A DNA stretch of 64,000 nucleotides from Polyangiales bacterium (GCA_044229975.1 JBGARZ010000023.1:1-64000); one strand, 5' to 3'. Shown: positions 1,798 through 43,448, numbered from the stretch's first letter. Translations and numbers: made by a program. The notes: a model not told the origin generated them from the sequence alone.

Positions 1798-3044
1798 GGA
1801 CGTGGCCTCCCAAAGACGATCGCGTCGGGGAAGATGCCCACGGTGAACTGCCGCACCACCGAGAGGTCGTCGGGGTTGAGCGCGAGCACGGTACCGGGCT
1901 GGTTGAGGGTCGGGTCGCTCCCATGGCGACCCTCGCAGACGAGGTAGTAGAGGCCGTCGGGGCCGTGCGCGACCTGATGCGGCAGCACGCACTGGTCGGC
2001 CGTGAAGGAGACCTGCTGGAGCACGGTGATGGGTGCGCGGGTGGTGATGCGCGCAACCGAGTCACGGCCCTGAACGGGCACGATCAGGGTCGCGCCATCG
2101 GGGCTGAAGCCCGGGAAGTAGGGCTTGCCTCCGAGGCGTCGGGTCAAGCGGGCTTCGTCGAAGCGACCCGCGGCGATGTCGTAGGCGATGAGCAAGCCGG
2201 ACACGGTGCAGCCGACCCAGACGGTGGTTCCATCGGGCGAGAGGCCGAGGGCGTAGGGGCCATGCGTGGGGCTGACCGAGCTCGCCGGAGGCCCGGCGAT
2301 GTGAACCAGGCGCGCCGTCGGACGGGGCCCGTCGAGGGAGACCACGCCGAGGGCGTCGTCGCCGTAGCAGGCCATGAAGATCGAGCGGCCGTCGGCCGAG
2401 ACCGCCATCCCGTGGGCGGCGACGCAGACCGGCACCGTCGCGGTGCGGGTCATGGTGGCCGTGTCGATGACCAGGAGGTTGGATCGTTGCGCGTCGGCGT
2501 CGCCCAGGTTGGCGAGCGCGCGGCGCAGGTCGAAATGCGAGACGTACGCCGTGCGTCCGTCGGGGGAGAGCACGAGGTCGCCGGGGTTGGGGTCGAGGTC
2601 GATCTGCCCCAGGAGGCGGAAGTCGCAGAGCGAGCGCTTCACGAAGATCCCAGGGGAGACCGCGGAGCCGTGCTCGGCGTGGGGCCCCGCGGGAATCGCC
2701 GGTGCCGGGAACGACAGCGGCGAGTAGAGCACCCCCGCGGCGACGTCGAGCGCGAGGTGGTGCGGGCCGTTCTCGGCGAGCGGCCCGACGGGCACCGGGT
2801 GCGTGGTGAGGGTGCGCCCCGCGACGAGGTCGAGGACGGAGACGGAGTTCATCAGGCTGTTGGAGACGTAGGCGACGCTACCGAAGCCGCCGTCCGGGAG
2901 GTCGGGCTGCTCGCAGCGAGGACCCCACGCAGCGGCGTCGGGGCGATCGTAGACTACGCGCTCCTCCCCGCACGCGACGGCGCCGAGGGCGACGAGCAAC
3001 ACGCCGAGGAGATTGCTGGTGGGGGGCAGGGTCGAACGCATCAA
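1794..3044 (-). CDS. YncE/YVTN-family beta-propeller lipoprotein, His-rich
   Basis: Lipobox AVAC; AYVSNSLMNSVSVLDL, SPDGRTAYVS and VGIFPD blade motifs; several His clusters. Confidence 0.8.
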   Translation of the reverse strand: MMRSTLPPTSNLLGVLLVALGAVACGEERVVYDRPDAAAWGPRCEQPDLPDGGFGSVAYVSNSLMNSVSVLDLVAGRTLTTHPVPVGPLAENGPHHLALDVAAGVLYSPLSFPAPAIPAGPHAEHGSAVSPGIFVKRSLCDFRLLGQIDLDPNPGDLVLSPDGRTAYVSHFDLRRALANLGDADAQRSNLLVIDTATMTRTATVPVCVAAHGMAVSADGRSIFMACYGDDALGVVSLDGPRPTARLVHIAGPPASSVSPTHGPYALGLSPDGTTVWVGCTVSGLLIAYDIAAGRFDEARLTRRLGGKPYFPGFSPDGATLIVPVQGRDSVARITTRAPITVLQQVSFTADQCVLPHQVAHGPDGLYYLVCEGRHGSDPTLNQPGTVLALNPDDLSVVRQFTVGIFPDAIVFGRPRP

Positions 3045-4405
3045 TAGCCTCCTGGGTGTGCCCGCGTCGGGGTCGAGCGCTCTGGCCTCGGGCTTCGGCA
3101 GCGAGCGATCATCGCCAGAACGGCGAGCGCCAGACCGCGTGAGGACCCTGGTGCGCCCCGGCGGGAGAGGTCGCAGGCGCAGCCGTCCGGCGATGGCCTG
3201 GTGGTGATGGTTGCGTCCACACTCGCGGGGCCCGAGTCGCCGGAGGGAGCGTCGGGCACGCCGCCGTCGTCCTTCATGTCCGGGAAGAGGATCTGCGCCT
3301 GGGCGCCCTTCCAGCGCTCACCACAGACGCGCGCGGCGGGTGATCCGTCCATGCATGCGGGCGGTCCCGGTACGTCGGCCCAGCGCAGGGCGGATTCGAA
3401 GGACCGGCCGCCGTCCGTTGAGCGCCCGAGGGCATAGCCCGTGCGCACCCAGTCGCTACACGCCCAGAGCGCTCCCTGGTGCTGCTTCAAGCAGAAGATG
3501 GGGAGGTCGCTCACGGGCAGGAAGGTTCGGCCGCGGTCGTCGGAGCGATGGAGCCCCTCGGCGCTGCTGCCATACCAGACGGTGCGTCCGTCGTCGGAGA
3601 TCGCGAACCCCAGCATGAGGTCGCTCGTCCGGGCCACGGTCTCAAAGCGCACGCCGCCATCCTCGCTGCGGAGGAGGCTCGACCCGAGGCCGCGGGACGT
3701 GCGGACGTAGACGACCTGGGCGTCCGCCGGATCGACGCCGGCGACGAAGGTCTCGTCCCCGAGGTCGGCGGTGGGGGCGAGCGCGCGGACCGTCGCACCC
3801 CCGTCGTCGCTGCGCAGGAGCAACGGGCTGCCGAGGTTGTCGGCGCCCGAGAGGTAGAGCCGCCGGACGTCCGTCGGCGCGACGTCGATGGTGGTCAGCC
3901 GGACACCCTCCAGCGGGCTCCCGGTGGGGACGAAGCGCAGGGTATTGGCCGGCGCGCGAAGGATGCGCCCGGGCGAGCCCAGGGTGCCGTCGATCGCGAA
4001 CACGGTGCCGCCGTCGGGGGTCGAGGCGAGGTCGATGATGTTCCGGTCGCCGAGGTCCGCCTGACCGGTCGCCGAGCAGCCGTCGGTGAGCGCGTTGACG
4101 CCGTGGTTGAAGCCGTAGACCACGGTGCCGAAGCGGGTGATCTCCACCGCCGGATCGATGACCAGCGGGAGGGGGTAGGGGTCGTACATGAGCTCCTCGC
4201 AGTGCCACTGGAAGGTGCGCCCTTCATCGCGGCTCACCAGCAGCCCGAAGGTCACCCGCAGCACCACCATGCGCGACGAGGTGCCGGGCCCGAGGAGCAC
4301 CTGTTGCGCCGTTGGGAAGCGACCGTTGGCGTGCGCGCTCTCCCCGCGCGCGAGGAGCGCGCAGAGCGACAGGAGGGCGGCGGCGACGAGCGGTCGGACG
4401 GGCAT
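3041..4405 (-). CDS. BNR/Asp-box beta-propeller (NGRFP family) with MYXO-CTERM-like tail, paralog 1
   Basis: Signal peptide AHA-NGRFP; repeated SxDxGxTF Asp-boxes; C-terminal GCAC + hydrophobic + basic tail. Confidence 0.85.
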   Translation of the reverse strand: MPVRPLVAAALLSLCALLARGESAHANGRFPTAQQVLLGPGTSSRMVVLRVTFGLLVSRDEGRTFQWHCEELMYDPYPLPLVIDPAVEITRFGTVVYGFNHGVNALTDGCSATGQADLGDRNIIDLASTPDGGTVFAIDGTLGSPGRILRAPANTLRFVPTGSPLEGVRLTTIDVAPTDVRRLYLSGADNLGSPLLLRSDDGGATVRALAPTADLGDETFVAGVDPADAQVVYVRTSRGLGSSLLRSEDGGVRFETVARTSDLMLGFAISDDGRTVWYGSSAEGLHRSDDRGRTFLPVSDLPIFCLKQHQGALWACSDWVRTGYALGRSTDGGRSFESALRWADVPGPPACMDGSPAARVCGERWKGAQAQILFPDMKDDGGVPDAPSGDSGPASVDATITTRPSPDGCACDLSRRGAPGSSRGLALAVLAMIARCRSPRPERSTPTRAHPGGY

Positions 4406-4420
4406 GGCGCCTCGCGGGGC

Positions 4421-5065
4421 TCAGGGGCTGATGGTGAACCGCCGCGGCGCGCTCTGCACGAAGGGTCCGCTGCCGCTCGGGATCACATTGGCGTTGAAGG
4501 TCGCCGTCTGGATGGTGAGCGAGAGCGGGCCCCCGGCGGCGGCCGTGCGGAGTCGCGCCCACGACGCGGCGTCGGGCGTCCACGACGTGCCCGACTGCTG
4601 CCGACGGAAGACCACAGTGTCGCCGCTGCGAATGAAGACGTCGTAGCCGCGACCGCTGAACGGGGGACAGTGGGCCTGCGCTTCGGGGACGAGGGTCGTC
4701 CAGCGCTGCCACTCGTCGGCGAACGTCAGCGCACGCGTGGCAGGCGGCCGGAGACGGAAGGACGTCGGCGCGGTCCATCGGAAGGTGTACGGCGTGGCGC
4801 CCGGGAGGGCCTCCGCCTCGGTCGGCGCAACGATGGCGGGGGCCCGGGCGTCGTTCACCATCGACTGGCCGTTCGAGATGCGGTCGTCAAAGCCCTGACA
4901 CGTCTCGTCGCTGAAGCCGTCCTCCGTCGGGCAGGTCGGAAGGCTGATGACGTTGCGGTCGGCGCACGCTGCGCTGGTGACAGTGCTTTCATCGCAGGCC
5001 ACCGCAAACACCAACGGCAGGGCCAAGGCAGAGAGGGTGGTGAGGGCTGTGCGGATCTTCATCAT
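4421..5065 (-). CDS. Hypothetical Cys-containing lipoprotein with internal PEAQAHC motif
   Basis: AAGGAG RBS; lipobox AVAC; coherent 214-aa ORF within the operon. Confidence 0.75.
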   Translation of the reverse strand: MMKIRTALTTLSALALPLVFAVACDESTVTSAACADRNVISLPTCPTEDGFSDETCQGFDDRISNGQSMVNDARAPAIVAPTEAEALPGATPYTFRWTAPTSFRLRPPATRALTFADEWQRWTTLVPEAQAHCPPFSGRGYDVFIRSGDTVVFRRQQSGTSWTPDAASWARLRTAAAGGPLSLTIQTATFNANVIPSGSGPFVQSAPRRFTISP

Positions 5066-5170: not shown

Positions 5171-6534
5171 TCACGGCCGCAGGCTGACTTCGTCCTGCGC
5201 TTCGAGCCTCCGCGAGCGCCGGCGAGACCACAGCGCCAGCAACCCGACGAGACCCCAACCGATCCGACCGGGCACCGCCCGGACGGCCCCCACCGAGCAC
5301 GCGCCGCCGCCGCCGCCGCCAGGCGACGCAACGCCCGCGTCGATGCGAAAGCCCGCGTCGATCGGGAGCGGCGGCGGGTTCTTCAGAACCTCACCGGCGT
5401 CCGCAGCGCGCCCGATCTGGTCCTGGATGCCGGGCCACTGCCAGCCGCACACGGTCGGACCCATCAGCGAGGGATCACAGCGGAACGCCCCGTCGACCCA
5501 CTCCCACCGCACGACGGGCTCGAAGGTCCGGCCGCCGTCGCGGGAGCGGCCCAGCGCGAAGGGTCGCTGCGTCCAGTCCGAACAGGCCCAGAGCACGCCG
5601 GCGTGTTGCCGCAGGCAGAGCGTCGGGAGGTCGTTCACCGGGGCGAACGAGCGACCGCGGTCGTCGGAGCGGAGGAGCCCTTCTTCACGGCTACCGATCC
5701 AGACGGTGCGACCGTCGTCGCTCAGCGCGAAGCCGAGCATCATTCCCCGGGTCGATGCGACGCGGGTGAAATGGGCCCCTCCGTCCTCGCTGCGCAGGAG
5801 GGCCGTGCTCACCGCGCCCACGAACGAGCGCACGTAGAGCACGTTGGCGTCCGTCGGATCGACGCCGCTCAGCCACGCGTCTTCGGCCGCCCCGAGGTCG
5901 GGCGTCAGGGGGACGAGGGTGGCGCCATCGTCGTCGCTGCGGAAGATCCGGGGGGTGCGGGTCATCGCGTCGAAGCCGCTGGCGTAGAGGCGCCCGGGGC
6001 GGCTCGTGGCCACGTCGAGGTTGGTGAAGGTGACGCCCGCGACGCCCGCACCGAGGCGCTCGAAGCGGAGGGTGCGGGAATCCGCCCGGAGTACGTGGTT
6101 GCTCATCCCCGGGTCGGACTCGATGGCGAAGAGGTTCTCTCCCGTGGCGTCCGAGGTGAGGTCTGCGATGTGGTGTTCGAGAGCCGTTGGGTCGCGGGCG
6201 ATCTGGCACCCGTCGGGCGATACGTGGATGCCTCGCGTGTAGCCGAACAGCATGCTCCTGTCGGCCGCGATCGCGATGGACGGGTCGACGTCTCCGGTCG
6301 GAAACAGTGGCCGATAGATCTGCGCCTCACACATCCAGTGGAAGGTCGCCCCGGCGTCGTGGCTGACCACGAGCCCGAAGGTCGTCCGTAGGACGATCAC
6401 GTCGCTCCGGGGGCCCGGCCCGATGACGACATCCTGAGCGGTCGGGAAGCGTCCGTTCGCGCTGGCGGGCAGCCCGCCGACCAGGAGCGCCGCGAGGAAC
6501 GCCACCCCTGAAGAGAGCCGAACGGGCGCATGAG

Positions 6535-6538
<4 letters not shown>
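5171..6538 (-). CDS. BNR/Asp-box beta-propeller (NGRFP family) with MYXO-CTERM-like tail, paralog 2
   Basis: ATG at 6538 overlaps the czcA stop (ATGA); ASA-NGRFP; Asp-boxes; GACSV...WGLVGLLALWSRRR tail. Confidence 0.85.
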
Positions 6539-9714
<3,176 letters not shown>

Positions 9715-9715
9715 G

Positions 9716-10855
9716 TCAGTCTGCCTCGCCGAGCTCGCCGCCCTGGAGCGCGCTCTTGAGCGTGAAGGCCCCGCTCACTGCGAGCGCTGCGCCCTCCGAG
9801 AGGCCCCCGCGCAGCTCGTGGAAGCCGCCGGCCCGCCGACCGAGCTCGACGGCCTGCGGGCGGAAGGTGTTGGCGCCGCTCGCGGGGACGAAGACCGTGG
9901 GCTGACCCTCCACCGTCGCGACGGCATCGACCGGAACCACCAGGACGCGCTCATCGGGCGCCCCACCCACCAGCTCGACGCTCCCGAACAGGCCGCTGCG
10001 CAGGCGCGCGTCGGGGGTCGTGAGCGAGACGCGGATGGGCAGCGACCGGGTTCGCTCGTCGAGAGCGGGCGCGACGTAGACGACGGTTCCGGCGAGCGCG
10101 AGGTCGGGGAAGGCGTGCAGGCGCACGATGACCGCGGTGCCCACCGCGACGCGGGCGATCTCCAGCTCCGGGACGTCGCCGCGCACCCACACGCGGGTCG
10201 GGTCGGTCACCACGAAGACCGCCCGCTCGGGGCTCGCGGTCTCGCCGAGGGCCGCCTGCACGGCCACCACGACGCCGTCGATGGGAGAGCGGAGCTGGAG
10301 CTCGCCCGCGGTACCGGAGCCGAAAAGCGCGAGCTGCCTTTGGGTGCCCTCGACCTCCGCGCGCAGCTCGCCCACCTGCGCCTCGGCGTCGATGACCGAG
10401 CGCTGGGCGCCGATGCCCTCGGTGGAGAGCGCGCGCTGGCGGCGGAGCGTGGCCTCAGCGGCGGAGAGCCGGGCGCGGGCCTGACCGAGGCGGGCGCGGG
10501 CCGCGGAGACGTCGCTGGACGCGACGACCCCAAGCACCTGGTTGCGGGTCACCCGCTCTCCGATCGCGACGGCGACGCGGGTGATGCGGCCCGACACCAG
10601 CGGGCCCACCTGCGCAGTGCTGCTCGGTTCGAACTGAATCTCCGCGGGCAGGGCTGCGCCACCTCCGAGGGCGCGCCGCTCGACGCGCCCGGTTCGGATG
10701 CCCGCGAGCTGCATGGCTTCCGCGGTCAGCCGCACCTCGTGGGGCGCGCCGGCCTCCGCGGCGGGTTCGGAGGCAGGGGCTGGAGGGGCTGCACCCTTGC
10801 AAGCGATGAAGACGACGGAGAGCGCGACGAGCACCCGCGGAACAAGTCTGATCAT
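9716..10855 (-). CDS. czcB: RND periplasmic adaptor (CzcB/CusB family)
   Basis: LRSPIDGVV and LRSGLFG membrane-fusion motifs; directly upstream of czcA. Confidence 0.9.
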   Translation of the reverse strand: MIRLVPRVLVALSVVFIACKGAAPPAPASEPAAEAGAPHEVRLTAEAMQLAGIRTGRVERRALGGGAALPAEIQFEPSSTAQVGPLVSGRITRVAVAIGERVTRNQVLGVVASSDVSAARARLGQARARLSAAEATLRRQRALSTEGIGAQRSVIDAEAQVGELRAEVEGTQRQLALFGSGTAGELQLRSPIDGVVVAVQAALGETASPERAVFVVTDPTRVWVRGDVPELEIARVAVGTAVIVRLHAFPDLALAGTVVYVAPALDERTRSLPIRVSLTTPDARLRSGLFGSVELVGGAPDERVLVVPVDAVATVEGQPTVFVPASGANTFRPQAVELGRRAGGFHELRGGLSEGAALAVSGAFTLKSALQGGELGEAD

Positions 10856-12309
10856 GGCAACACCTCGGGGCTGTGGTCGTCGGGCCAGAGATCGACGCCG
10901 ACGGTTCGCTCCAGGTTGGCGAGGGCGACGAAGTAGTCGAGCTGCGCGTCGAGCGCGTCGTTTTGGATGCGTAGGAAGCGCTCGCGCCCGATGGAGAGGG
11001 CGAGCACGTCGATCTCCCCGAGCTCGAACGATCGCCGCAGCAGCGCAAGGTTCTCCTCGAAGCGCGGGAGCACCTCGGTGCCGTAGCTGCGCAGGCGCTG
11101 CGCCGCGGAGGTCACCTCGCTGTGGGCGAGCGCCACCTGGCCTTCGAGGAGCGAGAGCGCGGCCGCGAGCTCGGCCTCGGCGACCCGCACGTCGGCGCGC
11201 GATCGGGCCCGCTCACCCTGGTTGCGCTGGAAGCTCGGGATGGACACCGACACCACGCCCTGCACCGTGTGGTACGGCCCCTCGGCGGTGGGGTTTCCTT
11301 CCCGCTGGTATTGCAGACCGACGGTAGGCTGGGGCCACGACCCGCGGTCGGCGACGGCCACTCGCGACTGTGCCTCGCGCAGCGCAGCGTCGCGCGTGCG
11401 CAGCGACGGGAGCTGCTGGCGCGCCGTGGTGAGGAGCACATCGAGCGCCGGTGGTTCGCGCGCGGCGTCGACCTCTCCGACGGGCGTCGGCGGTCGTGCG
11501 ACGGGCCAGCCGGAGAGCTGCGCGAGCTGGAGGCGGGCGCTGAGGTAGCCCTGCGTGGCGGCGACGGTGAGCTGCCGCGCCTGGGCCACCTCGGCCTGCG
11601 TGAGGCGCAGCGTGAGGCCGGCGGTCTCCCCGGCGCGAATCTGTCGCTCGACGATGCGCAGCAGGTCCTCCTGGAAGGCGAGGATGCGCGCCGCGAGGAG
11701 GGCCCGATCGCGCTGCACCAGGGCGCGGTGGAAGGCCGCGTGGACGTCGCAGTGGACGGCCCAGCGGAGCTGCTCGATCTCGGCGTCGGTGAGGTCGCGC
11801 TGGCGGTCGGCGGCCGTGAGCCGCAGGCCCCGTTCGCCGCCGATGAAGAACTGCTGGGTCACGCTGGCCTGCACGTCGACGCCGGTGCCCGTGAGGCCGA
11901 GGCGGGGGCCGACGGCGAGGCTCACCTCGGGGTTGGACGGCAGCCACGGGGCGGCGGCGACGCGGGCGGCCACGGCGCGCGAGCGGGTGCTGCGGGCGAC
12001 CTGCAACACCGGCGCACGGGCGTCGGCGTACGCGAGGAACGCCAGGAGCTCGACCTCCTGAGGGCCAGTCGGATCGGGGAGCGCCGTGCGGATACCGGCG
12101 CGCGTCGGCGCGTGGTCGTTTCCGCCGGAGGACGGGGACGAGCGGAGGTGGGGAGCGACGGACTCGGGACGCTCGACGGGGACGCTCGATGCGCACGCCT
12201 GCACCAGCATCGCGCCGCAGACGCCGGCCACGCGGGCGAGTCGCGCCAGGGAGTGAAGAGTCCGCCGCGTTTCCGGCGCCGTGGATCGGCCGAGAGCGAG
12301 CCGGCTCAT
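10852..12309 (-). CDS. czcC: TolC/CzcC family outer-membrane efflux protein
   Basis: PSNPEV, PSFQRNQG, SFELGEID; ATG at 12309 overlaps the upstream stop. Confidence 0.88.
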   Translation of the reverse strand: MSRLALGRSTAPETRRTLHSLARLARVAGVCGAMLVQACASSVPVERPESVAPHLRSSPSSGGNDHAPTRAGIRTALPDPTGPQEVELLAFLAYADARAPVLQVARSTRSRAVAARVAAAPWLPSNPEVSLAVGPRLGLTGTGVDVQASVTQQFFIGGERGLRLTAADRQRDLTDAEIEQLRWAVHCDVHAAFHRALVQRDRALLAARILAFQEDLLRIVERQIRAGETAGLTLRLTQAEVAQARQLTVAATQGYLSARLQLAQLSGWPVARPPTPVGEVDAAREPPALDVLLTTARQQLPSLRTRDAALREAQSRVAVADRGSWPQPTVGLQYQREGNPTAEGPYHTVQGVVSVSIPSFQRNQGERARSRADVRVAEAELAAALSLLEGQVALAHSEVTSAAQRLRSYGTEVLPRFEENLALLRRSFELGEIDVLALSIGRERFLRIQNDALDAQLDYFVALANLERTVGVDLWPDDHSPEVLP

Positions 12310-13010
12310 GGTGCTCCCGGAGACGATCCGAGCATTGATGGGTTCCACTGGATCGTGCGCCCCGGCTGCACCGTCGGTCGGCTCACCAGGCCGAGGGCCA
12401 CGGCCCCCGCGCCGAGCGCCACGCCGATTCCCACGGTGACCCAACCGGCGGTCACGAAGCCGGTACGCCCTCGCGCCTCGTCATCGCCGAAGCCAAGGAG
12501 CACGGGCCCAGTGATGAGTCCCGCAACGCCGAACATCCCCATCACGAGCGCGCCGATGATGCCACCCGCGGAGGTCGTGCTACGGCCGATGGCGTGGCGC
12601 GCCACGGAAGGTTCGGCGCCCACGCTGATGAAGCCCGCGCTGCTGCGCCACGGATCATCGAGCACGCTGAAGAGGATCTCGTGGTGGCCGAGGGAAAGAT
12701 TCACCGCGCAGGGCAGGAGACACAGTGGTCGCGTCACACGCTGTGGACCTATGAGGTAGGCCCCGCGATACCCCACGGCGCCTTGGGGGATGGCCGTGTT
12801 CTCCGAGCGCTGGACGACCTCGTCGGCGCGCGCAGGCCCCTCTGTCGCGTCCAGGACCACACGTCCCTCGCCGGCACCCGGCGGAGGGAGTTCGCTTGCG
12901 ACGGTCGGCACACTGCGCGGTGGAACCGCAGGAGGCGGAAGGCCGCGTGGAGCGCACGCCTGCACCAGCAGAAGCGCCGTCACGTCGATGCGTTGAAGGG
13001 TCACTCGCAT
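12306..13010 (-). CDS. Hypothetical lipoprotein/membrane protein with two C-terminal TM segments
   Basis: LVQAC lipobox-like segment; CLLPC motif; two Gly-rich hydrophobic helices; translationally coupled to czcC. Confidence 0.65.
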   Translation of the reverse strand: MRVTLQRIDVTALLLVQACAPRGLPPPAVPPRSVPTVASELPPPGAGEGRVVLDATEGPARADEVVQRSENTAIPQGAVGYRGAYLIGPQRVTRPLCLLPCAVNLSLGHHEILFSVLDDPWRSSAGFISVGAEPSVARHAIGRSTTSAGGIIGALVMGMFGVAGLITGPVLLGFGDDEARGRTGFVTAGWVTVGIGVALGAGAVALGLVSRPTVQPGRTIQWNPSMLGSSPGAP

Positions 13011-14620: not shown

Positions 14621-14633
14621 GGTCGCGGCCTGA

Positions 14634-14652
14634 CCTACTATGGTAGGTAGTA
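14634..14652. promoter_or_regulatory. Putative BlaI-type operator CCTACTAT-N5-GTAGTA
   Basis: Quasi-palindrome between divergent blaI-like and ZIP genes; the same motif recurs at 43513-43531 and a variant at 13102-13123. Confidence 0.55.
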
Positions 14653-14665
14653 CCGCGCAACCCCC

Positions 14666-21875: not shown

Positions 21876-21909
21876 GGGATGTTTCCACTGACGATCGAGG
21901 CGGGCGGCC

Positions 21910-24078: not shown

Positions 24079-25434
24079 TCACGAACGTCGGGATCGATCG
24101 GTACAGCGTCGCCGCCTGACCACCCCGAGCACCAGAGCCGACCCGATGCTCCAGCCACCGGGCCCATGTCCGCCCAGTCTGCCCCGCGCCCCCACCGCGC
24201 AGCCGCTGTCCTCCATCGGTCCCACCGTGCCGTCGCGCGCTGTTCCTCCGTCCAGCCCCGCGCCTGCGTCGGGCAGGCTCCCGAACCCGCTCCTCACCGT
24301 CGACCAGGTCGGCGCGCACACGTCGCGCACCGCTGTCCCCGCGGGGCAGGCCGTCGGTGGCCCCAGCGTTCGGAAGTCCACCAGCGGGACCACGGTCCGC
24401 CCGTCGTCGTCCGAGCGCGCCAGGTTGAAGCCATCGATCACATGGTTGCCGCACACGTAGAGCGCCCCGGCGTGCCAGCGCAGGCACTGCACCTGCACCC
24501 CGGACACGCGCTCGAAGGGACCGCCCGCCACCGAGCGCAACAGCCCGTCCTCGGGACCGCCCACCCAGACCGTGCGTCCGTCACCCGACAGCGCGAACCC
24601 GCGCATCGCGCCGACCGTCCGCGTGAGCTCGGTGAAGTGCGCGCCCCCGTCCGATGAGCGCAGGAGCAGCGTCGCGCCCAGCTCCCCTGGGCGCCGGGGA
24701 TCGTCCACGAACGAGCGCAGGTACACCACGTCGGGGTCCGTCGGATCGACCGCGGAGAGCCACCCCTCGGCACCGCCCTGCAGATCGAGCGGCGACTCCA
24801 CGAGCGTCGACCCTCCGTCGTCCGAGCGGTAGAGGAGGTCGCGCGCAGGGTTCGCCGCGCGGGCCGTGAGGTACACCCGCCGCGGGTTCGAGGGCGCCGC
24901 CTCCAACGTGAGAAACAGCACCCCAGGGGCGCCGTCGTAGACCGTGCGAAAGCTCCGTCCGCCGTCAATAGAGGCGCGCACCCGGTTGACGAGGCCGGAC
25001 GTCAGGGGGTCGCGATACGAGCCGACCCAATGCACCGTGCGCCCGTCCTCCGTGGCGCTCACGTCGGCCGTGAAGTCGGTGCCGACCTCGGGCACCGCCG
25101 CCGAGGAGCAGACGTCCGCGGTGCGCCGAAGGCCCGTCGGAACCCCCAACATCAGGGGTGGGATACCGTCCTTGCCCGGCGCGCCGAAGGCCACCGGCGG
25201 GTCCCAGACGGCCGAGTTCGCATAGTCGAGGGCGCCCTCGCACATCCACGACCAGCGACGGCCCTCGTCCTCGCCGATCAGCACTCCGAAGGTCGTCCGC
25301 AGCACCATCCGGGCGGGGCGCGCGCCTGCGCTCACCTGCACCATCTGCGCGGTCGGGAAGCGACCGTTGGCCAGGGTTCCCGTCGCCGCAGTGAGCAAGG
25401 CGAGCCCGAGGGCGAGACTCCGGGGCGCGGTCAT
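24079..25434 (-). CDS. BNR/Asp-box beta-propeller (NGRFP family) with MYXO-CTERM-like tail, paralog 3
   Basis: TLA-NGRFP; WMCE; Asp-boxes; SGCAV...LVLGVVRRRR. Confidence 0.85.
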   Translation of the reverse strand: MTAPRSLALGLALLTAATGTLANGRFPTAQMVQVSAGARPARMVLRTTFGVLIGEDEGRRWSWMCEGALDYANSAVWDPPVAFGAPGKDGIPPLMLGVPTGLRRTADVCSSAAVPEVGTDFTADVSATEDGRTVHWVGSYRDPLTSGLVNRVRASIDGGRSFRTVYDGAPGVLFLTLEAAPSNPRRVYLTARAANPARDLLYRSDDGGSTLVESPLDLQGGAEGWLSAVDPTDPDVVYLRSFVDDPRRPGELGATLLLRSSDGGAHFTELTRTVGAMRGFALSGDGRTVWVGGPEDGLLRSVAGGPFERVSGVQVQCLRWHAGALYVCGNHVIDGFNLARSDDDGRTVVPLVDFRTLGPPTACPAGTAVRDVCAPTWSTVRSGFGSLPDAGAGLDGGTARDGTVGPMEDSGCAVGARGRLGGHGPGGWSIGSALVLGVVRRRRCTDRSRRS

Positions 25435-25827: not shown

Positions 25828-27732
<1,905 letters not shown>

Positions 27733-31307: not shown

Positions 31308-31523
31308 GGTCGTCGGACGTCAGGGGAGCGCTCAGGTGGAATCGGCTGACCGCGTGCAGCATCTGGGTCAAGGGCATCGGGAGACCTCCAGGCGACGGCG
31401 ATTCGTGAGAGGTTGCGGAGCATAGACGAGCGAGCGCGTGAACTGGTGCGCGCTGGCTTCGTGGTCGGCGCGCCGCGACGTGCGTCGCCTCTCACTCCGT
31501 CGGCATCGAGGAGACTGCGACCT

Positions 31524-32429
31524 GTGCTGCCCTACAAACCTCGCGACTGGCTGCGGCTGCTGCTCCGGATCCGAGGCTCGTTCGCGCGGGGCGTCCCGCT
31601 GCGCATCCTCGCGTTCGGGGCCATCGCGGCGGTCGTCACGGAGATCGACCGGCGGGGAGTGACCCTCCACCTGCCGGCGGGTGTTCACGAGGCGGGGGGG
31701 GCCGTCATCGCGCTGGTCCTCGCCTTTCGCGTCAACACTGGATACAACCGCTTCTGGGAGGGGCGCACGCTCTGGGGCGCCATCGTCAACGCGAGCCGCA
31801 ACCTCAACCGCATCGTGTACCGCCACGCCGCGCAGAGCCCGGATGACGCGCGGACGTTTGCTGTATGGGTTGTGACCTTCGCGCACGCCGCCCGGCGCCG
31901 GCTCCGGGGTGAGGCGCAATGTCCTGAGATCGAATACCTCCTGGGCCCCGAGCAGTACGCCTCCCTGACCGGGCTGGGGTCGCCACCGCTGGTGGCGGCT
32001 TCGGAACTCTCGCGGCGAATCCAGGCACTCCTCGCGCGCGGCGCCATCGACGCGAAGTTCGCGGTCCAGGCGGAGGCCGAAGTGAACGTGCTGGTCAACA
32101 GCCTGGGCGGCTGCGAGCGCATCCTGAAGACACCGACGCCGCTCGGGCTGGTGCTACTCATCGAGCGCCTTATCGCGCTCTACCTCTCGACGCTGCCCTT
32201 CAACCTCCTCGGCCGGGTCGAGGTCTTCACGCCCCTCATCACGATGCTGATCGCCTATCCGATCCTCATGATCGACGCTCTCGGGGCCGAGTTTGACGAG
32301 CCCTTCGGGCACGACGCCAACGACTTGCCACTGACCCGCATCTGCACCACGATTGAGCGCGACCTCCTGGGCAGCGAGCCACCAGCGGAGATGGTCTTCG
32401 CGGGGGCGGCAACCACCGCCGAGGATTGA
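31524..32429 (+). CDS. Bestrophin-family anion channel (YneE/UPF0187-like)
   Basis: GAGGAG RBS; LAFRVNTGYNRFWEGRTLWG, GGCERILKTP, DEPFGHDANDLP. Confidence 0.9.
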   Translation: MLPYKPRDWLRLLLRIRGSFARGVPLRILAFGAIAAVVTEIDRRGVTLHLPAGVHEAGGAVIALVLAFRVNTGYNRFWEGRTLWGAIVNASRNLNRIVYRHAAQSPDDARTFAVWVVTFAHAARRRLRGEAQCPEIEYLLGPEQYASLTGLGSPPLVAASELSRRIQALLARGAIDAKFAVQAEAEVNVLVNSLGGCERILKTPTPLGLVLLIERLIALYLSTLPFNLLGRVEVFTPLITMLIAYPILMIDALGAEFDEPFGHDANDLPLTRICTTIERDLLGSEPPAEMVFAGAATTAED

Positions 32430-34444: not shown

Positions 34445-35908
34445 ATGACAGGCCACTTTGCAGCGCGGGTCGGAATGCTTCTCGCGGGCATGTTGCTGAC
34501 CCCCGCGCCAGTGAGCGCGAACGGTCGCTTCCCGACGGCGGGCTACTTCGTCGCAGGCCCCGGGGTCCGCAATGACGTGTTCGCGCTGCGTACCACCTTC
34601 GGCGTGCTCGCCTCGCGCGACGCCGGGCAGACGTGGACGTGGGTCTGCGAGGCCGCCTACAACCAGATCGGCGCGAGCGACCCCACGCTCTCCATCGGCG
34701 CCGACGGAACCCTGGTTCTCGCCTCGTACCTCGGGCTGATTGCGAGCGACGGCGACTACTGCTCCTGGCCCAGGCTGGCCGGAGTGCCGCAGCGGGATTT
34801 CGCCGACGTGACCAACACCGCCGACGGGCGCTCGCTGGTCGCGCTCGCGGGGCCCGATGGTGAGAACGCGCTCTACCTCTCCAGCGACGCCGGCCACACC
34901 TGGGAGTTGGGGGCTCGCCTCACCGGATACGCGACCGAGACCGTGGACGTCGCGCCCGGCGATCGCCTGCGCGTGTACGTCACCGGCTACGGCAGCGGCG
35001 GGCGACCGGTGCTGCTGCGGAGTGACGACGGTGGTCGTACCGTGCGCGAGGTCACGAGGGATTTCCTGGGAAACCAGAACATCTATATCGCCGGGGTCGA
35101 TGCGACGCGCCCCGACATGATCTACCTCCGCGCCATGAACGGCCTCGCGACCACGCTGCTGCGCAGCGAGGACGGCGGGGCGACGATGCGGGCCGTCGGA
35201 CGGACCGCGCGGGACATGCTGGGCTTCGCGCTCTCCGACGACGGGGAGACCGTCTGGATCGCGAGCGCCGACCGCGCGGAAGGCATCCTGCGGTCGGAGC
35301 GCGGAGGGCCCTGGGTTCGCATGGCGGCGGACGTGGGCGTGAAGTGTCTGCGCTTCCACGCGGGCACGCTGTTCGTGTGTGCGGACGAGGCGCGCGACGG
35401 CTTCGCGCTGGGCTATTCCCACGACGGTGGCGACCACGTCGACCCGCTGCTCTCGTTCCGCTTGGTGGACGGGACGACCACGACGTGCGGCTCGAGCACC
35501 CAGGTCGGCGCCACCTGTCCCGCCCTCTGGTCCTCGGAGACGATCCTGCTGCGGAGCGTTGACGCGAGCGTGCCGAACGCTCCGGTCTTCCACGACGCCA
35601 GCACCGATCATGGGGTCATCACCGACCGCCTTCCGCCGCTCGACACCTACGTCCCGCCGTCGGACGGGGCGACGGTGCGCGACGCGGGTCGTGGACTCGA
35701 CGCGGCGGTCGTGAGCGGGACTGACGCTGCGATGGACGCTCAGCGTCCTCTCGACGCGGCGGTAGGATCGACCGGCCCCGCAGGTGGTTGCGGCTGCTAC
35801 GTCGCCAGTCGCGATGCATCGAGCGATCGGGGTGGGGCGTGCGTCGCGCTGGCCGTGTGGGTCACGTTCGCGGGAACATCAAGGCGCGCGCGGCGTCGGC
35901 GGCGATGA
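34445..35908 (+). CDS. BNR/Asp-box beta-propeller (NGRFP family) with MYXO-CTERM-like tail, paralog 4
   Basis: VSA-NGRFP; Asp-boxes; GGCGC...RRARRRR. Confidence 0.88.
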   Translation: MTGHFAARVGMLLAGMLLTPAPVSANGRFPTAGYFVAGPGVRNDVFALRTTFGVLASRDAGQTWTWVCEAAYNQIGASDPTLSIGADGTLVLASYLGLIASDGDYCSWPRLAGVPQRDFADVTNTADGRSLVALAGPDGENALYLSSDAGHTWELGARLTGYATETVDVAPGDRLRVYVTGYGSGGRPVLLRSDDGGRTVREVTRDFLGNQNIYIAGVDATRPDMIYLRAMNGLATTLLRSEDGGATMRAVGRTARDMLGFALSDDGETVWIASADRAEGILRSERGGPWVRMAADVGVKCLRFHAGTLFVCADEARDGFALGYSHDGGDHVDPLLSFRLVDGTTTTCGSSTQVGATCPALWSSETILLRSVDASVPNAPVFHDASTDHGVITDRLPPLDTYVPPSDGATVRDAGRGLDAAVVSGTDAAMDAQRPLDAAVGSTGPAGGCGCYVASRDASSDRGGACVALAVWVTFAGTSRRARRRRR

Positions 35909-37377
35909 GTCCCTCGCCAGAACGTCCCCTGGGTGGCCGGAGGCGACAGGCGGTGCGGTTGGGGATGCTGTTGGTGGCGACGGCCCTGAGCTCTGCGGAG
36001 GCGCGGGCGAACGGGCGCTTCCCCGGGGCCAACTACTTCGTGGCGGGGCCGGGTTCGCGCAACGACGTGTTCGCGCTGCGTACGACCTTCGGACTGCTGC
36101 TCTCGCGCGACGGTGGTCGGGCGTGGAGCTGGGTCTGCGAGGGGGCCTACGGGGCCATCGCGGGCGACCCCGCGCTCTCGATCGGAGCGGACGGCACCCT
36201 CGTGCTCGCGTCGTACGTCGGCCTGAGCGGCAGCAGCGGCGGTGACTACTGCACCTGGGCGCCTCTGGGAGGAGTTCCTGTGCGGGACTTCATCGACGTC
36301 TCGCAGACCGCGGACGGCCGGTCGATGGTCGCCCTCGCGGGGCCCGGCGGGGAGAACGCGCTCTACCTCTCGTCCGACGGCGGGCGCACCTGGAACCCCG
36401 GCGCGCGCCTCGTCGGGTACACCACGGAGACCGTGGACGTCGCGCCCAGCGACCCGACGCGGGTCTACGTCACCGGGTACGCGACCACGGGCTCGGGCGG
36501 ACCGGTGCTGCTGCGAAGCGACGACGGCGGTCGCACCGTTCGAGAGGCCACGCGCGACTTCCTCGGCGGCGAGAGCGTCTTCCTGGCCGGGGTGGATCTG
36601 ACGCGCCCCGACGTGATCTACCTGCGCGCCGTGCGCGGCCTCCCGACGACCCTGTTGCGCAGCGACGACGGAGGAATGACCGTACGGCTCGTCGCGCAAA
36701 CCGCGCGGGAGATGCTGGGCTTCGCGCTCTCTGACGATGGTGACACGGTGTGGATCGCGAGCGCCGATCCCGCCGGGGGGATACTGCGATCGGAGCGTGG
36801 CGGCCCATGGACGCGCACCGCAGCGGACCTTGGCGTGAAGTGTCTGCGCTTCCACGCGGGCACCCTGTTCGTGTGCGCGGACGAGGCGCGCGACGGCTTC
36901 GCGCTGGGCTATTCCCGCGACGGCGGCGACCACGTCGATCCGTTGCTCTCGCTGCGTCTGGCGGAGGGCGCGTCCGGGGCTTGCGGTCCAGGCACCCAGG
37001 TGGGCGGCGCCTGCGCTTCCCGCTGGGCGACAGAGACGATGCTGCTCCGAGACATCGACGCGAGCGTGCCAACCGCGGCGGTGTTCCACGACGGGAGCAC
37101 CGATCACGGAGTCGCACTCGATCGGGCTTCGCCAATCGACGGGCCGACCGGTCGCCTCGACGCGGGTCAACCAACCGACATGATGGTCCTTCCCCCTGGT
37201 GGCTGCGGGTGTCGCGTAGCGGGGCGGGGCGGAGGGCCAGCACGGGGCGTGACGGTGAGCGCGTGGCTCACCGCGGCGGTGGTGCTCGTCGGGCGTTTGA
37301 GGCGACGAGCGCCGGCGAGGAGTGCCCATCTCCCGGCAGCCCGACTTGCTCCCGCGCAAACGGCGAGGCTCGGTTGA
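35905..37377 (+). CDS. BNR/Asp-box beta-propeller (NGRFP family) with MYXO-CTERM-like tail, paralog 5
   Basis: ATGA overlap with paralog 4 and high similarity to it; GGCGCRV...GRLRRR. Confidence 0.88.
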   Translation: MSPSPERPLGGRRRQAVRLGMLLVATALSSAEARANGRFPGANYFVAGPGSRNDVFALRTTFGLLLSRDGGRAWSWVCEGAYGAIAGDPALSIGADGTLVLASYVGLSGSSGGDYCTWAPLGGVPVRDFIDVSQTADGRSMVALAGPGGENALYLSSDGGRTWNPGARLVGYTTETVDVAPSDPTRVYVTGYATTGSGGPVLLRSDDGGRTVREATRDFLGGESVFLAGVDLTRPDVIYLRAVRGLPTTLLRSDDGGMTVRLVAQTAREMLGFALSDDGDTVWIASADPAGGILRSERGGPWTRTAADLGVKCLRFHAGTLFVCADEARDGFALGYSRDGGDHVDPLLSLRLAEGASGACGPGTQVGGACASRWATETMLLRDIDASVPTAAVFHDGSTDHGVALDRASPIDGPTGRLDAGQPTDMMVLPPGGCGCRVAGRGGGPARGVTVSAWLTAAVVLVGRLRRRAPARSAHLPAARLAPAQTARLG

Positions 37378-37932: not shown

Positions 37933-39258
37933 GTGTACCTTCCCGGCGTGCTTCGACGAGCTCTCCTCGCAACCGCGCTGAGCTTCCTTCCAGCCACGGC
38001 CTACGGCAACGGACGCTTCCCCCAGGCGCAGGAGTTTCACCAAGCCCCGGGCTCGAACAGCGAGCTCATGGTCGTGCGCGCCACCTTCGGACTCATCGTC
38101 AGCGTCGACCGGGGCCAGCGGTGGGAATACTGGTGCGAGGACGCTCTGCAGTACTCCGACGGCTACGATCCGCCGCTGACGTACACCGCCAACGGCACGC
38201 TGCTCGTCGCCCTCGACAACGGCCTCTTGAGCACCCGCGATGGGTGTTCAGTTCGCCGCCAACCCGACCTCGAGTCCCTCAGCGTCAAGGACATCGCCTC
38301 GTCGCCCGACGGCCGCGTGACATGGGCGATCGCGGTGACCCGCAGCATACGACCCGACTCGCGCGTCGCACGTTCGACCGACCAGGGCCTCACCTTCGAG
38401 TTCGTCGGCGACCGCTTCGAGGGGGTGATGCTGGAAACCATCGAGGTCGCGGGCTCCGATCCGCTGCGGCTCTACGCCACCGGCACGCTGACCTCCGACG
38501 GCACCGCGGTGCTCTTCCGCACCGTGGACGGCGGCGTGCGCTGGGTGCGCGCCAGCGCGGGCTTCGGCGAGGCTAGCGGGGTGTACGTCTCCGGCGTCGA
38601 TGGGCATCGCCCGGAGGTCGTCTACCTGCGCGCGACCGCGGCCGGGCGGGACATGGACGCCGGCCCCGCGGGCAGCGCTGATGTGCTCTTCCGCAGCGAC
38701 GATGGGGGTGAGACGCTGCGCGAGGTGCTTCGTACCCGCGGCCCGATGCGGGGGTTCGGACTCTCCGACGACGGTCGACGGGTGTGGGCTGGCGGGCCCG
38801 AAGACGGCGTGTGGCGCTCCATCGACGGGGCAGCGCCCACGCGCTTTTCGGACGAGCCTGTCGACTGCCTCCGGTGGAGTTCGGGTGCCCTGTGGGCCTG
38901 CCGCGTCTTCACCCTCGGCGGCCCCTTGTTGCTGCGGAGCGACGGCGACAGCGCCTTCGTCACAGCGCTTTCGGCGCCTGAGGTTGGCGGTCCTCCGGTC
39001 CGTTGCCCGACCGGAACCGTCGCGAGCGGGGTGTGTCCGTCGCGGTGGAGCGTGGTGCGGCGATCTCTCGTTCAGCCGGCGGCGATCGATGCCTCGACCG
39101 ACCAGGGCGCGGCGGTCACGCAGCCGTCCTCGGCGGGCCATGGATGCCACGCCGGACCTGGGGCGCAGGGGGCTTGGAGCGCCTTCGTCGGGTTCGCCGT
39201 TGCGGCGATCGGACGGCGGCGGCGCACTCGCACCCTCCGCTCCCGCCCTGACGGCTGA
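37933..39258 (+). CDS. BNR/Asp-box beta-propeller (NGRFP family) with MYXO-CTERM-like tail, paralog 6
   Basis: AYG-NGRFP; YWCE; Asp-boxes; GHGCH...AAIGRRRR. Start approximate. Confidence 0.85.
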   Translation: MYLPGVLRRALLATALSFLPATAYGNGRFPQAQEFHQAPGSNSELMVVRATFGLIVSVDRGQRWEYWCEDALQYSDGYDPPLTYTANGTLLVALDNGLLSTRDGCSVRRQPDLESLSVKDIASSPDGRVTWAIAVTRSIRPDSRVARSTDQGLTFEFVGDRFEGVMLETIEVAGSDPLRLYATGTLTSDGTAVLFRTVDGGVRWVRASAGFGEASGVYVSGVDGHRPEVVYLRATAAGRDMDAGPAGSADVLFRSDDGGETLREVLRTRGPMRGFGLSDDGRRVWAGGPEDGVWRSIDGAAPTRFSDEPVDCLRWSSGALWACRVFTLGGPLLLRSDGDSAFVTALSAPEVGGPPVRCPTGTVASGVCPSRWSVVRRSLVQPAAIDASTDQGAAVTQPSSAGHGCHAGPGAQGAWSAFVGFAVAAIGRRRRTRTLRSRPDG

Positions 39259-41735: not shown

Positions 41736-41844
41736 TTGCCCCCATTTCACAGCGAAACCATAGTTGCTTCTCCGCCTTTCCTTCTGGACGTCATTCCTTC
41801 ATGCCGTCACGAAGGCAAGATGGTCGCGTCGTACCGTGCGTCCA

Positions 41845-41923
41845 CGCCGCGTGCTTCCACTGCGACCCTCTGCTGGAGGGGTGTGACCCCGATCCGGCGT
41901 GACATCAGTCGTCGAGCTGTTGA
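41845..41923 (+). repeat. ~80-bp direct repeat, copy 1
   Basis: CGCCGCGTGCTTCCACTGCGACCCTCTGCTGG...GTCGTCGAGCTGTTGA, near-identical to 43827-43910. Confidence 0.9.
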
Positions 41924-41924
41924 G

Positions 41925-43448
41925 TTAGGGGGGTCGAGTCGGCGACTGTGACCCTGACGGCCCATGCTTCCGCGGCGGGGACCGACGGCGAGCCGGGACG
42001 ATCAGTCCCAGGACTGCCAGCACGAGCGACGCGCCACCCCCACCGGGCGCGGCGTGCGCCCCCGCGCGGCAGTTGCACCCGTCGCGCGGCGCTGGTGCGC
42101 CAACGGCGTCGAGCACGGTGTCGGGGGCATCGAGCACCCGGCCCGCGTCGCGGGCGTCGGCCCCGCCGAGATCCTCAGACACGTCGGGCGCGGCGCCGAG
42201 GTCCGCGGGCAGCGTCCCGGCGTCGAGCGGCGCCTGCATCCCGCTCGCGTCGAAGACGGCGGCATCGTGGAAGACCGGCGCGCGCGGCGCGCTCGCGTCG
42301 ATGCTCCGAAGCGGCGCCGAGACCGCCGACCAGAAGTCGGCGCACGTCGCCCCGACGCTGGCGTCGCCGCACATCGGAGAGGTGCCGGTGAGCCGACGTA
42401 GCGAGAGCAGCGGGTCGATGTGCTCGCCGCCGTCGTGGGAGTAGCCCAGCGCGAATCCGTCAATCACCTCGTCGGCGCACACGAAGAGCAGCCCGGCGTG
42501 ATAGCGCAGGCACTTCACACCAACGTCGCCACCGACACGCGTCCACGGGCCACCGCGCACCGATCGGCGGATGCCCTCGGCGCGAGCGGAGCTCGCGGTC
42601 CAAACGGTCTCGCCGTCGTCGGAGAGCGCAAAGCCCACCATCTCCTCCGACGTCTCCCCGATGGGGCGTAGGGTCAACCCGCCGTCATCGCTGCGCAGCA
42701 ACACCGTCCCGAGACCACGGGTACCTCGCACGTACACCACGTCGGGCCGGCGCGGATCGACGGCAGCGAGGAATACCCCATGGGCGCCGGCAAAGTCCCG
42801 CGCGACCTCGCGCACCGAGCGCCCGCCGTCGTCACTGCGCAGAAGAACCGGGATGCCGCCGCGAACATAGGCCGTCACGTAGACTCGCCGCGGGTCGTTG
42901 GGCGCCACGTCCGCGGTCTCGCTGAAGTACCCCATCAGCCGCGCGCCAGCTTCCCAACTCCGCCCGCCGTCGGACGAGAGCACCAACACGTCGTCGCCGG
43001 TGGGCCCGGCCAACGCAACCATGGCGCGCCCGTCGGCGGTGTGGGTAATGTCGGCAAAGCCCCGCGTGGGCGCGCCCGCCGGACGCGTCCAGCGACAGTA
43101 CGCCCCGTTGCTGGATGCGAGCCCGGTGAAGGTTGCGATCACCACGGTGCCGTCGGCGCCGATGGAGAGCGACGGATCGGCAGCGCCAGGGGCATTGAAG
43201 CCCTCCTCACAAACCCAATCCCACTGCCGCCCGCCGTCTCGCGAGAGCAGCAGACCGAAGGTCGTGCGCAGCGCTAGGACGTCGTTGGTCGCGCCCGGGC
43301 CCGCGACGAAGTATCCCGCTGCGGGGAAGCGCCCGTTGGCCTGCGCCTCGCCCGCGAAACCGAGAGCCAGCGCCAGACCCAGTGCCCCCACCCTACCCCG
43401 CACCGCTCCCCCGCACATCCAATGCCCACCCGCCGTTGGTGCTGTCAT
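41925..43448 (-). CDS. BNR/Asp-box beta-propeller (NGRFP family) with MYXO-CTERM-like tail, paralog 7
   Basis: AQA-NGRFP; close to paralogs 4 and 5; DGCNCRA...LIVPARRR. Confidence 0.87.
   Translation of the reverse strand: MTAPTAGGHWMCGGAVRGRVGALGLALALGFAGEAQANGRFPAAGYFVAGPGATNDVLALRTTFGLLLSRDGGRQWDWVCEEGFNAPGAADPSLSIGADGTVVIATFTGLASSNGAYCRWTRPAGAPTRGFADITHTADGRAMVALAGPTGDDVLVLSSDGGRSWEAGARLMGYFSETADVAPNDPRRVYVTAYVRGGIPVLLRSDDGGRSVREVARDFAGAHGVFLAAVDPRRPDVVYVRGTRGLGTVLLRSDDGGLTLRPIGETSEEMVGFALSDDGETVWTASSARAEGIRRSVRGGPWTRVGGDVGVKCLRYHAGLLFVCADEVIDGFALGYSHDGGEHIDPLLSLRRLTGTSPMCGDASVGATCADFWSAVSAPLRSIDASAPRAPVFHDAAVFDASGMQAPLDAGTLPADLGAAPDVSEDLGGADARDAGRVLDAPDTVLDAVGAPAPRDGCNCRAGAHAAPGGGGASLVLAVLGLIVPARRRSPPRKHGPSGSQSPTRPP

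Follow-up and report, generated by a model that had tools for sequence, protein, structure and literature searches.

A family of secreted seven-bladed propeller proteins with a fixed NGRFP end in a metal-resistance region of a Polyangiales genome, and its predicted docking role

A stretch of 64,000 nucleotides from a Polyangiales bacterium (GCA_044229975.1 JBGARZ010000023.1:1-64000; the whole stretch analysed is called the window here) carries seven paralogous genes for predicted secreted Asp-box propeller proteins among genes for heavy-metal efflux, and this work concerns the structure, the neighbours and the possible role of this protein family. The window has a G+C content of about 70% and corresponds to C29:1-64000 on the 152-kb contig C29 of a 10.0 Mb genome of 39 contigs. 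A preceding reading of the DNA (the sequence-only reading) had proposed the seven paralogs, and all seven open reading frames (ORFs) are present where it had placed them. Named W1 to W7 in coordinate order, they are W1 (3041..4405, minus strand, 454 aa), W2 (5171..6538, minus strand, 455 aa), W3 (24079..25434, minus strand, 451 aa), W4 (34445..35908, plus strand, 487 aa), W5 (35905..37377, plus strand, 490 aa from the ATG at 35905), W6 (37933..39258, plus strand, 441 aa) and W7 (41925..43448, minus strand, 507 aa from the ATG at 43448). W4 and W5 stand in tandem with an ATGA overlap between the stop of the first and the start of the second, and W3 is divergent from a Ser/Thr kinase gene (25828-27732, 634 aa). 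The third-position GC coding measure is low (14-21) for W5 (35953-37377), W6 (37933-39258) and W7 (41925-43145) and lies at 40-58 for W1 to W4; neighbouring genes are also higher, and family genes in several other genomes are low too.

The seven products align end to end, with identities of 34-45% to W1 and of 33-70% between pairs. All have a signal peptide, three conserved Cys pairs, between four and seven Asp-box-like S-x-D-x-G motifs, and an acidic, Asp-rich linker of D, A and G residues which leads into a tail made of a Cys, a hydrophobic stretch and an Arg-rich end. The string NGRFP is invariant in all seven, 22-37 residues from the start and behind AXA-type sites, the residues immediately before it being AHA, ASA, TLA, VSA, ARA, AYG and AQA. 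Each of the shared motifs named by the sequence-only reading was recovered as an invariant or near-invariant column of the seven-way alignment, namely R-x-T-F-G, W-x-C-E, G-F-x-x-S-x-D-G, C-L...C and the Cys pair after the propeller. The RIP motif is a feature of sialidases, and its supposed absence from these proteins needs correction, since NGRFP itself holds an R-hydrophobic-P string that resembles it.

The surroundings of the genes agree with the earlier description of a heavy-metal island: the window holds two CusA/CzcA-type RND systems of the czcCBA type (TIGR00914, 1211 and 1195 bits) and a P1B ATPase (TIGR01525, 605 bits), and the whole contig has five genes like those of heavy-metal efflux RND (HME-RND) pumps, six P1B genes and also two Fur-like regulators. 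W1 and W2 belong to a run of eight minus-strand genes with no room for a promoter between them. This run starts with a heavy-metal RND efflux operon (6535..12444; Pfam OEP, HlyD_D23 and ACR_tran across czcCBA) composed of czcC (10852-12444), czcB (9716-10855) and czcA (6535-9714; the gene scoring 1211 bits), and continues into W2, a 214-aa predicted lipoprotein (4421..5065), W1, a YncE-like YVTN propeller lipoprotein with seven invariant His (1794..3044) and a c-type cytochrome (1054..1797). The junctions are tight: czcC and czcB overlap in ATGA, czcB and czcA are separated by 1 nt, the ATG of W2 overlaps the czcA stop codon in ATGA, 105 nt lie between W2 and the lipoprotein gene and 15 nt between the latter and W1, the stop of W1 overlaps the start of the YncE-like gene (TTGATG), and the GTG start of the cytochrome gene overlaps the YncE-like stop (GTGA). 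The 214-aa protein, which has a lipobox-like signal-peptide end (LVFAVAC) and is kept in genus relatives, gave no match in Pfam or NCBIfam. The block from czcC to the cytochrome gene is found at about 84% nucleotide identity in three genus relatives (G043, G117 and G145), with W1 placed differently and, on the contigs compared, with fewer family copies than in the window's genome. The coupling of the second paralog to czcA, asserted by the sequence-only reading, is borne out by an ATGA overlap kept in these three, that is in four genomes of the genus in all. Directly upstream of czcC, at 13164-14671 on the minus strand, there is a BlaR1-like M56 peptidase with a repressor of the BlaI/Penicillinase_R family, also kept in the genus relatives, and this pair may control the efflux genes; the same Pfam family includes the CopY repressors.

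The earlier count of a seven-member expansion holds for the window and falls short for the genome, which has 13 full-length copies, one fragment and ten weak matches confined to the tail region; eight of the 13 full copies are on contig C29. A word-indexed search returned 192 relatives, and every source that names an organism gives Myxococcota or "Deltaproteobacteria" metagenome-assembled genomes, with product names such as hypothetical, MYXO-CTERM, BNR/Asp-box and "photosystem II stability/assembly factor-like". The full profile search collected 60,220 proteins at E<=0.001, a figure which takes in other Asp-box proteins, and 3,619 cluster representatives at E<=1e-30. The family is mostly found in Myxococcota; it is present in 102 of 151 sampled genomes of the order (the window's genome and the unpublished G123 counted) and, at E<=1e-40, in 46 of 251 sampled genomes of the phylum, and a tblastn search with W2 found no match among the PLSDB plasmids. 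Among sequencing runs, 15 of DNA were listed, each with 0.05-0.08 of the words searched, and none of RNA. The N-terminal string NGR[F/Y/L]P occurs in 234 of 256 relatives (198 with F, 30 with Y and 6 with L), at a median offset of 25 residues and mostly after A-x-A, the other relatives being truncated or having the variants HGRFP, HGRPP, DGAFP, NSRFP or NGKFP. In three tandem read-through ORFs from metagenomes (P0126, P0134 and P0147) the motif takes the forms HGRPP/HGRPT, DGAFP and NGRPP/NGRAP. Four ORFs of 853-903 aa considered as fused two-propeller forms turned out to be read-through calls without an in-frame stop: in three of them the first copy retains its MYXO-CTERM tail and the second its signal peptide, and the fourth enters a YncE-like gene. 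As read-through of two genes, they give no Rosetta-stone evidence. Literature searches found no paper describing the family.

A tree of 74 family proteins from 67 loci, together with the identity matrix, assigned the 13 copies to four clades. Clade I is composed of W4, W5, W7 and the copies on contigs C26 and C20 (W4 and W5 are 70% identical to each other, and the three window copies are 54-62% identical to those on C26 and C20); clade II of W3 and a copy on C2 (70% identical); clade III of W6 and a copy on C32 (67% identical); and clade IV, with 11 rows in the tree and a Shimodaira-Hasegawa-like approximate likelihood ratio test (SH-aLRT) value of 96, of W1, W2, a copy on C11 and one at C29:148 kb. 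The window has a second set of all four clades. Just upstream of the copy at C29:148 kb lies a bestrophin gene (L030 17871-19313 = C29:150058-151500), the second one observed, and between the two there is a 138-residue fragment of a family gene.

W2 was modelled with AlphaFold2 on an alignment of 70 sequences (mean predicted local distance difference test score, pLDDT, 84.8; predicted TM-score, pTM, 0.79). In the model residues 34-343 form seven four-stranded blades, making up a single propeller of about 310 residues, followed by a helix (359-380) which bears the second Cys of the last pair, a disordered segment (383-423) and a transmembrane helix (426-446). The feature named a Cys-rich cap by the sequence-only reading amounts, in the model, to a single helix and a single Cys pair. 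The ordered chain begins at NGRFP, immediately before the first inner strand, and by general propeller topology the mature N-terminus would then be at the top face near the central channel. The residues invariant across the family (in W2 numbering R51, T53-F54-G55, C70-E71, D85-P86, G103, C111 and D126) are in loops of blades 1-3 and should face the top as well.

Comparison with solved structures placed the family among Asp-box propellers without assigning it to any known group. A profile search gave GH74 xyloglucanases at E 1.6e-19, the dispase autolysis-inducing protein (DAIP) at 6.6e-11, sortilin at 4e-5, HCF136 at 2e-4 to 0.03 and sialidase chains at 0.02-0.7, all as blade-level matches. 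Foldseek and VIA-align both rank GH74 first (Foldseek E 9e-12; VIA Z 24.5), and in a wide VIA-align comparison all seven-bladed propellers, unrelated WD40 proteins included, scored Z 21-24.5; a search of the ESM Atlas returned only generic BNR/Sortilin/PSII_BNR clusters. The Foldseek search that the sequence-only reading had called for thus recovered the seven-bladed propeller and no function-specific match, and the fold gives no function because the structure searches return only a generic seven-bladed propeller. A Pfam and NCBIfam scan of the seven copies found no model at or above its cut-off for the family.

Sialidases have six blades, sortilin has a ten-bladed propeller with two Cys-rich modules (10CC), and in GH74 enzymes two tandem propellers hold the active cleft between them. 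With its one propeller of seven blades the family belongs to none of these three groups. For GH33 sialidases, BNR_2 in addition reached Pfam E 0.18 in one copy only, so that the description of these proteins as Asp-box propellers other than sialidases stands; the GH33 active site also has a RIP motif, an Arg triad and a Tyr/Glu nucleophile pair, and an R-F/Y/L-P string resembling the first of these sits just before the first strand of the model. With GH74 and the OXG-RCBH proteins the family shares seven-bladed Asp-box blades and the patterns "vDP.dp..vY" and "SxDxGxTW", and they are its top matches in sequence and structure; GH74 proteins have however about 700-790 residues with matches in both halves, and the family here has one propeller of about 310 residues in a protein of about 455. 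The proposed likeness to sortilin was overstated, as PF15902 scores 11-21 bits against a cut-off of 33, the blades number seven and not ten, and no Cys-rich module follows the propeller. Ycf48/HCF136 and the sortilin Vps10 domain are likewise Asp-box propellers that act as non-catalytic binding or assembly factors, and they gave weak profile matches in Pfam and among solved structures; Ycf48 is, however, a photosystem II factor, its model (PF14870) scores at most 18.6 bits here against a cut-off of 27, and the neighbours of the family are not photosynthetic genes. Matches to the F510_1955 family glycosylhydrolase model (NF045728) extend over 100-160 residues at E 1e-5 to 1e-14 and remain at 24-51 bits against a cut-off of 175; the founding protein is given as one of unknown function in the accessible part of its description (PMC3948429). 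DAIP (PDB 5fzp/6fhp) resembles the family as a secreted single seven-bladed propeller of similar size that acts by binding another protein (Foldseek TM 0.58 on the target, 18% identity), and differs in being actinobacterial and in lacking the anchor tail, the NGRFP end and the conserved Cys pattern.

The tripartite C-terminal signal (an invariant Cys motif such as GCGC or GxC, a hydrophobic helix and an Arg-rich end) is visible in all seven copies and, with the transmembrane helix of the W2 model, upholds the earlier assignment of a MYXO-CTERM-type tail to secreted propellers. In a direct TIGR03901 scan of the seven tails (cut-off 20 bits), W5 scored 15.9, W6 18.4 and W7 17.9 bits and W1 to W4 gave no match; in the scan of the genome W6 and W7 reached 21.0 and 21.4 bits and three copies outside the window 22.8-27.8 bits. 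Five of the 58 MYXO-CTERM matches over the cut-off in this genome are family copies. A single match to the myxosortase core exceeds its cut-off (NF040914, 110.6 bits against 100), at C11:216968. As described in the accessible text of PMC11980579, MYXO-CTERM proteins undergo Sec export, lipidation of the Cys, cleavage by MrtX and surface display via the type II secretion system, and lipidation, cleavage and display are known there only for TraA of Myxococcus xanthus and for MXAN_4924. The signal peptide, Cys motif, hydrophobic helix, Arg-rich end and disordered linker are shared between these proteins (TIGR03901; TraA) and the family; the differences are that several family tails score below the curated cut-off and that an Asp-box propeller passenger is not among the domains named in the Table S1 legend of that source for 35 M. 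xanthus proteins. Disordered regions beside the tag are described in the same text, so that the acidic linker may not be specific to the family. By analogy, the tail of the family proteins is probably lipidated and cut by the myxosortase of the genome.

The YncE-like protein encoded next to W1 has seven His and four Cys that are invariant in 42 homologs, and the sources name it "YncE family". Its model (pLDDT 87.2) matches YVTN proteins, lactonases, NirN/NirF and nitrous-oxide reductase about equally; it is not L-NosZ, for which it scores 25.6 bits against a cut-off of 700. The cytochrome c gene lies directly downstream of the YncE-like gene in 29 of 30 genomes, and the YncE-like protein may be a metal-cluster enzyme. 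Complex prediction with residues 27-380 of W1 and 26-416 of the YncE-like protein gave ipSAE values of 0.87, 0.86 and 0.84 in three runs, compared with 0.00 for the best of three controls, with a partner pLDDT of at least 84 and a contact agreement between runs of at least 70%. That ipSAE mark is reached by 116 of 157 solved complexes and by two of 215 mismatched pairs, counts which are rough since our own alignments were used. The predicted interface of W1 is made up of the N-terminal GRFPT (residues 28-32), top-face loops of all seven blades and the C-terminal helix, and that of the partner flanks three of its invariant His. According to this prediction W1 would bind the YncE-like lipoprotein through its top face and its NGRFP end. 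At least nine of the 49 YncE-like places listed are within 1.5 kb of a family gene and two more within 3.5 kb, in four taxonomic families, and this recurrent adjacency is independent support for the docking; in one metagenomic ORF the reading frame of a family gene runs on into a YncE-like gene.

The relation of the family to metals was addressed by examining its neighbours in other genomes. We collected 60 loci from other genera, called genes with our own script based on third-position GC and composition, which can miss genes, and clustered the neighbouring genes, naming the clusters by Pfam. In these loci the family falls into several orthogroups, and the conserved neighbours differ from one orthogroup to the next. 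They are either a giant Ser/Thr kinase together with PP2C, FtsQ, FtsA and FtsZ, or a pair of OmpA-like proteins together with an FHA protein and the ribosomal proteins L35 and L20, or cytochrome P460 and two proteins with NHL repeats, or TPR, M74 peptidase and esterase genes. The kinase gene, coding for 1750-1770 aa, is divergent from the family gene in seven loci (L055, L060, L062, L063, L066, L069 and L070) drawn from three or more genera, and PP2C and FtsQAZ frequently stand on the opposite side. Clade IV has a different setting: its genes are followed immediately, on the same strand, by those for a Fur-family regulator and a permease of 600 aa. This permease, which is ZupT-like in its N-terminal part, reaches 183 bits against the SO_0444 Cu/Zn efflux family, where the cut-off is 300. 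When one locus, that with the best score, was taken from each of 30 genomes of the taxonomic family, the trio of propeller, Fur-like and permease genes was found in 13, spread over at least five genera; among the remaining loci, several end at contig edges or are not clade IV. The window's genome has three Fur-like paralogs, two of which follow clade IV copies while the third is about 0.7 kb from a P1B ATPase gene. Only clade IV, which includes two of the seven window copies, is regularly encoded beside metal regulators or exporters, and for this reason it likely serves metal handling. The metal role suggested by the sequence-only reading is accordingly retained for the clade of W1 and W2 (the Fur-like and permease pair in 13 of 30 genomes, the ATGA junction of czcA and W2, and the synteny in three relatives) and given up for the family as a whole, as the relatives of W3 to W7 lie beside cell-division, kinase, OmpA-like, NHL and esterase genes.

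Two other parts of the window were recorded. At 18876-21941 on the minus strand a 1021-aa ORF combines an LCCL domain with a C-terminal half of the TraB-like OmpA type (NF033763, E 6e-23); the ORF is situated within a lower-GC stretch at 18-24 kb (6 kb, 66-68% GC) where the composition-based caller found no gene, and which may be foreign DNA. A pair of beta-carbonic anhydrase and bestrophin genes occupies 30411-32429, 2 kb upstream of W4.

The explanation which we favour, tentatively, is that the seven genes encode secreted single seven-bladed propellers that are likely lipid-anchored, non-catalytic docking proteins in the cell envelope, and that the pair in the czcCBA operon likely acts in metal homeostasis. 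After Sec export the signal peptide would be cut at AXA, leaving a free N/H-G-R-hydrophobic-P end at the top face beside the first inner strand, and the docking surface would be made up of this end together with the conserved top-face residues (R-x-T-F-G, W-x-C-E and D-P). For W1 the partner would be the seven-histidine YncE-like lipoprotein, itself paired with the cytochrome c, with the two proteins meeting face to face. The tail would undergo lipidation and then cleavage by the myxosortase of the genome, as for TraA in M. xanthus. The proteins of clade IV would be accessories of metal export or of metal-linked redox chemistry and not metal binders themselves; W3 to W7 would dock on other partners, and a metal role is not needed for them. 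The sequence-only reading had likened these proteins to sortilin-like ligand receptors; a non-catalytic binding role remains the best reading, and the likeness to sortilin is dropped. There is a parallel with the accessory genes of heavy-metal RND operons, those of the CusF, CzcE and CzcI types, in that an additional extracytoplasmic protein is co-transcribed with the CBA pump; these are different in that they have no relation in sequence or fold to the family, which has no metal-binding motif and is coupled to the pump within one genus only.

Several observations weigh against this explanation. With regard to metals, the neighbourhood statistics were divided: eight of the 13 family copies are within 20 kb of an HME-RND or P1B gene, compared with 5.2% of the genome (the binomial tail of 5e-8 treats the copies as independent, which they are not), but the link is lacking for four of the 13, no czcA-like or P1B gene was found among the genes called in the 60 loci from other genera, and two further czcCBA sets, on C31 (about 88 kb) and C32 (about 402 kb) with CzcA 95% identical, are without a family gene in their vicinity. 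No conserved His, Cys or Met sets clade IV apart, and its His and Met content is about that of the other clades. With regard to docking, the placement of the N-terminus and invariant loops at the top face is derived from strand order and general propeller topology, the conserved Arg, Glu and Asp on this predicted face are compatible with catalysis, and the controls for the complex were unrelated proteins, none of them a propeller. A family gene is within 1.5 kb at only five of the 30 best-per-genome YncE-like loci, and the genome has two YncE-like genes for 13 family copies, which means that the YncE-like partner cannot be a general one. Finally, none of the seven tails reached the 20-bit MYXO-CTERM cut-off in the direct scan, and a surface protein of the MYXO-CTERM type does not necessarily occupy the same compartment as a lipoprotein lipidated at its N-terminus.

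A less probable explanation, which nevertheless has to be taken seriously, is that there is no shared metal function, and that the 152-kb contig is a plastic, duplication-rich accessory region in which tandem and segmental duplication alone, and no selection for metal handling, account for the cluster. For each of the window paralogs the genome has, at another site, a relative that is at least as close (the copy on C2 for W3, that on C32 for W6, and those on C26 and C20 for W4, W5 and W7, at the identities given above), W4, W5 and W7 are lineage-specific duplicates, the RND-like and P1B genes of the contig have accumulated in the same place, the genus relatives have a compacter version with fewer copies on the contigs compared, and the relatives of clades I to III occur in non-metal contexts. 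This explanation is opposed by the presence of four different clades in 1.5% of the genome, by the tie of clade IV to a Fur-like regulator and an efflux-like permease in at least five genera, and by the coupling to czcA kept in four genomes.

A glycan-directed function, as a lectin or as an atypical glycoside hydrolase or lyase that acts at the cell surface on exopolysaccharide or on the glycans of prey, with the R-hydrophobic-P string and the top-face acidic residues as sugar site, appears unlikely and is kept as an alternative because the top face has conserved Arg, Glu and Asp. The first rank of the GH74 xyloglucanases among solved structures in all three comparisons would fit it, as would the F510_1955 glycosylhydrolase matches and the resemblance of the R-x-P string to the RIP motif of sialidases. 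Against it, there is one propeller here where GH74 proteins match in both halves, sialidases have six blades and BNR_2 matched one copy at E 0.18, and seven-bladed propellers all tie at Z 21-24; in addition no carbohydrate-active gene recurs as a neighbour in 66 loci. The F510_1955 matches are far below their cut-off, and the protein that gave the model its name is of unknown function according to the part of the source cited above.

It is rather improbable that W1, the seven-His YncE-like protein and the cytochrome c make up a two-propeller envelope metalloenzyme, in which the family would provide anchored "cap" subunits that plug the His-lined face of the partner with their top face and free NGRFP end, and which, co-transcribed with the CzcCBA pump, would act at the cell surface on a metal or a small molecule, transforming or detoxifying it. 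The comparison here is with nitrous-oxide reductase, in which the seven-His copper cluster of NosZ is covered by another domain. It is also improbable that the proteins are a direct metal sink, the anchored propeller binding exported metal ions at the surface through its acidic linker and N-terminal Asn or His and preventing their re-entry. This would account for the place of a family gene as the fourth in czcCBA and at the head of the Fur-like/permease operon, for the Asp-rich linkers, and for residue +1 of the mature chain, mostly N among the relatives but in some of them H or D; direct metal binding is rated low because clade IV has no His, Cys or Met motif of its own, and the linker may come with the tag, given the tag-adjacent disorder described in the accessible text on MYXO-CTERM proteins (PMC11980579). 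Capture or inactivation of secreted metalloproteases, as by the dispase autolysis-inducing protein of Streptomyces, is very hard to credit, for although no other solved protein of a single domain matches the profile over so long a continuous segment as DAIP (E 6.6e-11, query 84-258, 175 residues), and its Foldseek TM is 0.58 at 18% identity, no protease gene recurs beside the family and the likeness is only at the level of shared Asp-box blades.

The fold and the sorting tag of these proteins were already known; what is new is the fixed NGRFP end, the clade structure, the operon with a Fur-like regulator and permease, and the predicted pairing with a seven-histidine lipoprotein. Myxobacteria show dozens of MYXO-CTERM proteins, for very few of which a role is known, and the family described here is a large one without a curated model, in which a genome can have as many as 13 copies and the mature N-terminus is strikingly constant. 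Should the docking model hold, it would supply a testable rule for the attachment of partner proteins to the myxobacterial envelope, and would point to a new accessory module of heavy-metal efflux operons in which the propeller is joined by a seven-histidine lipoprotein and a cytochrome c. Should it fail, the family would still be a clean target for structure determination and knockout, because one of its clades has a conserved three-gene operon with its own regulator.

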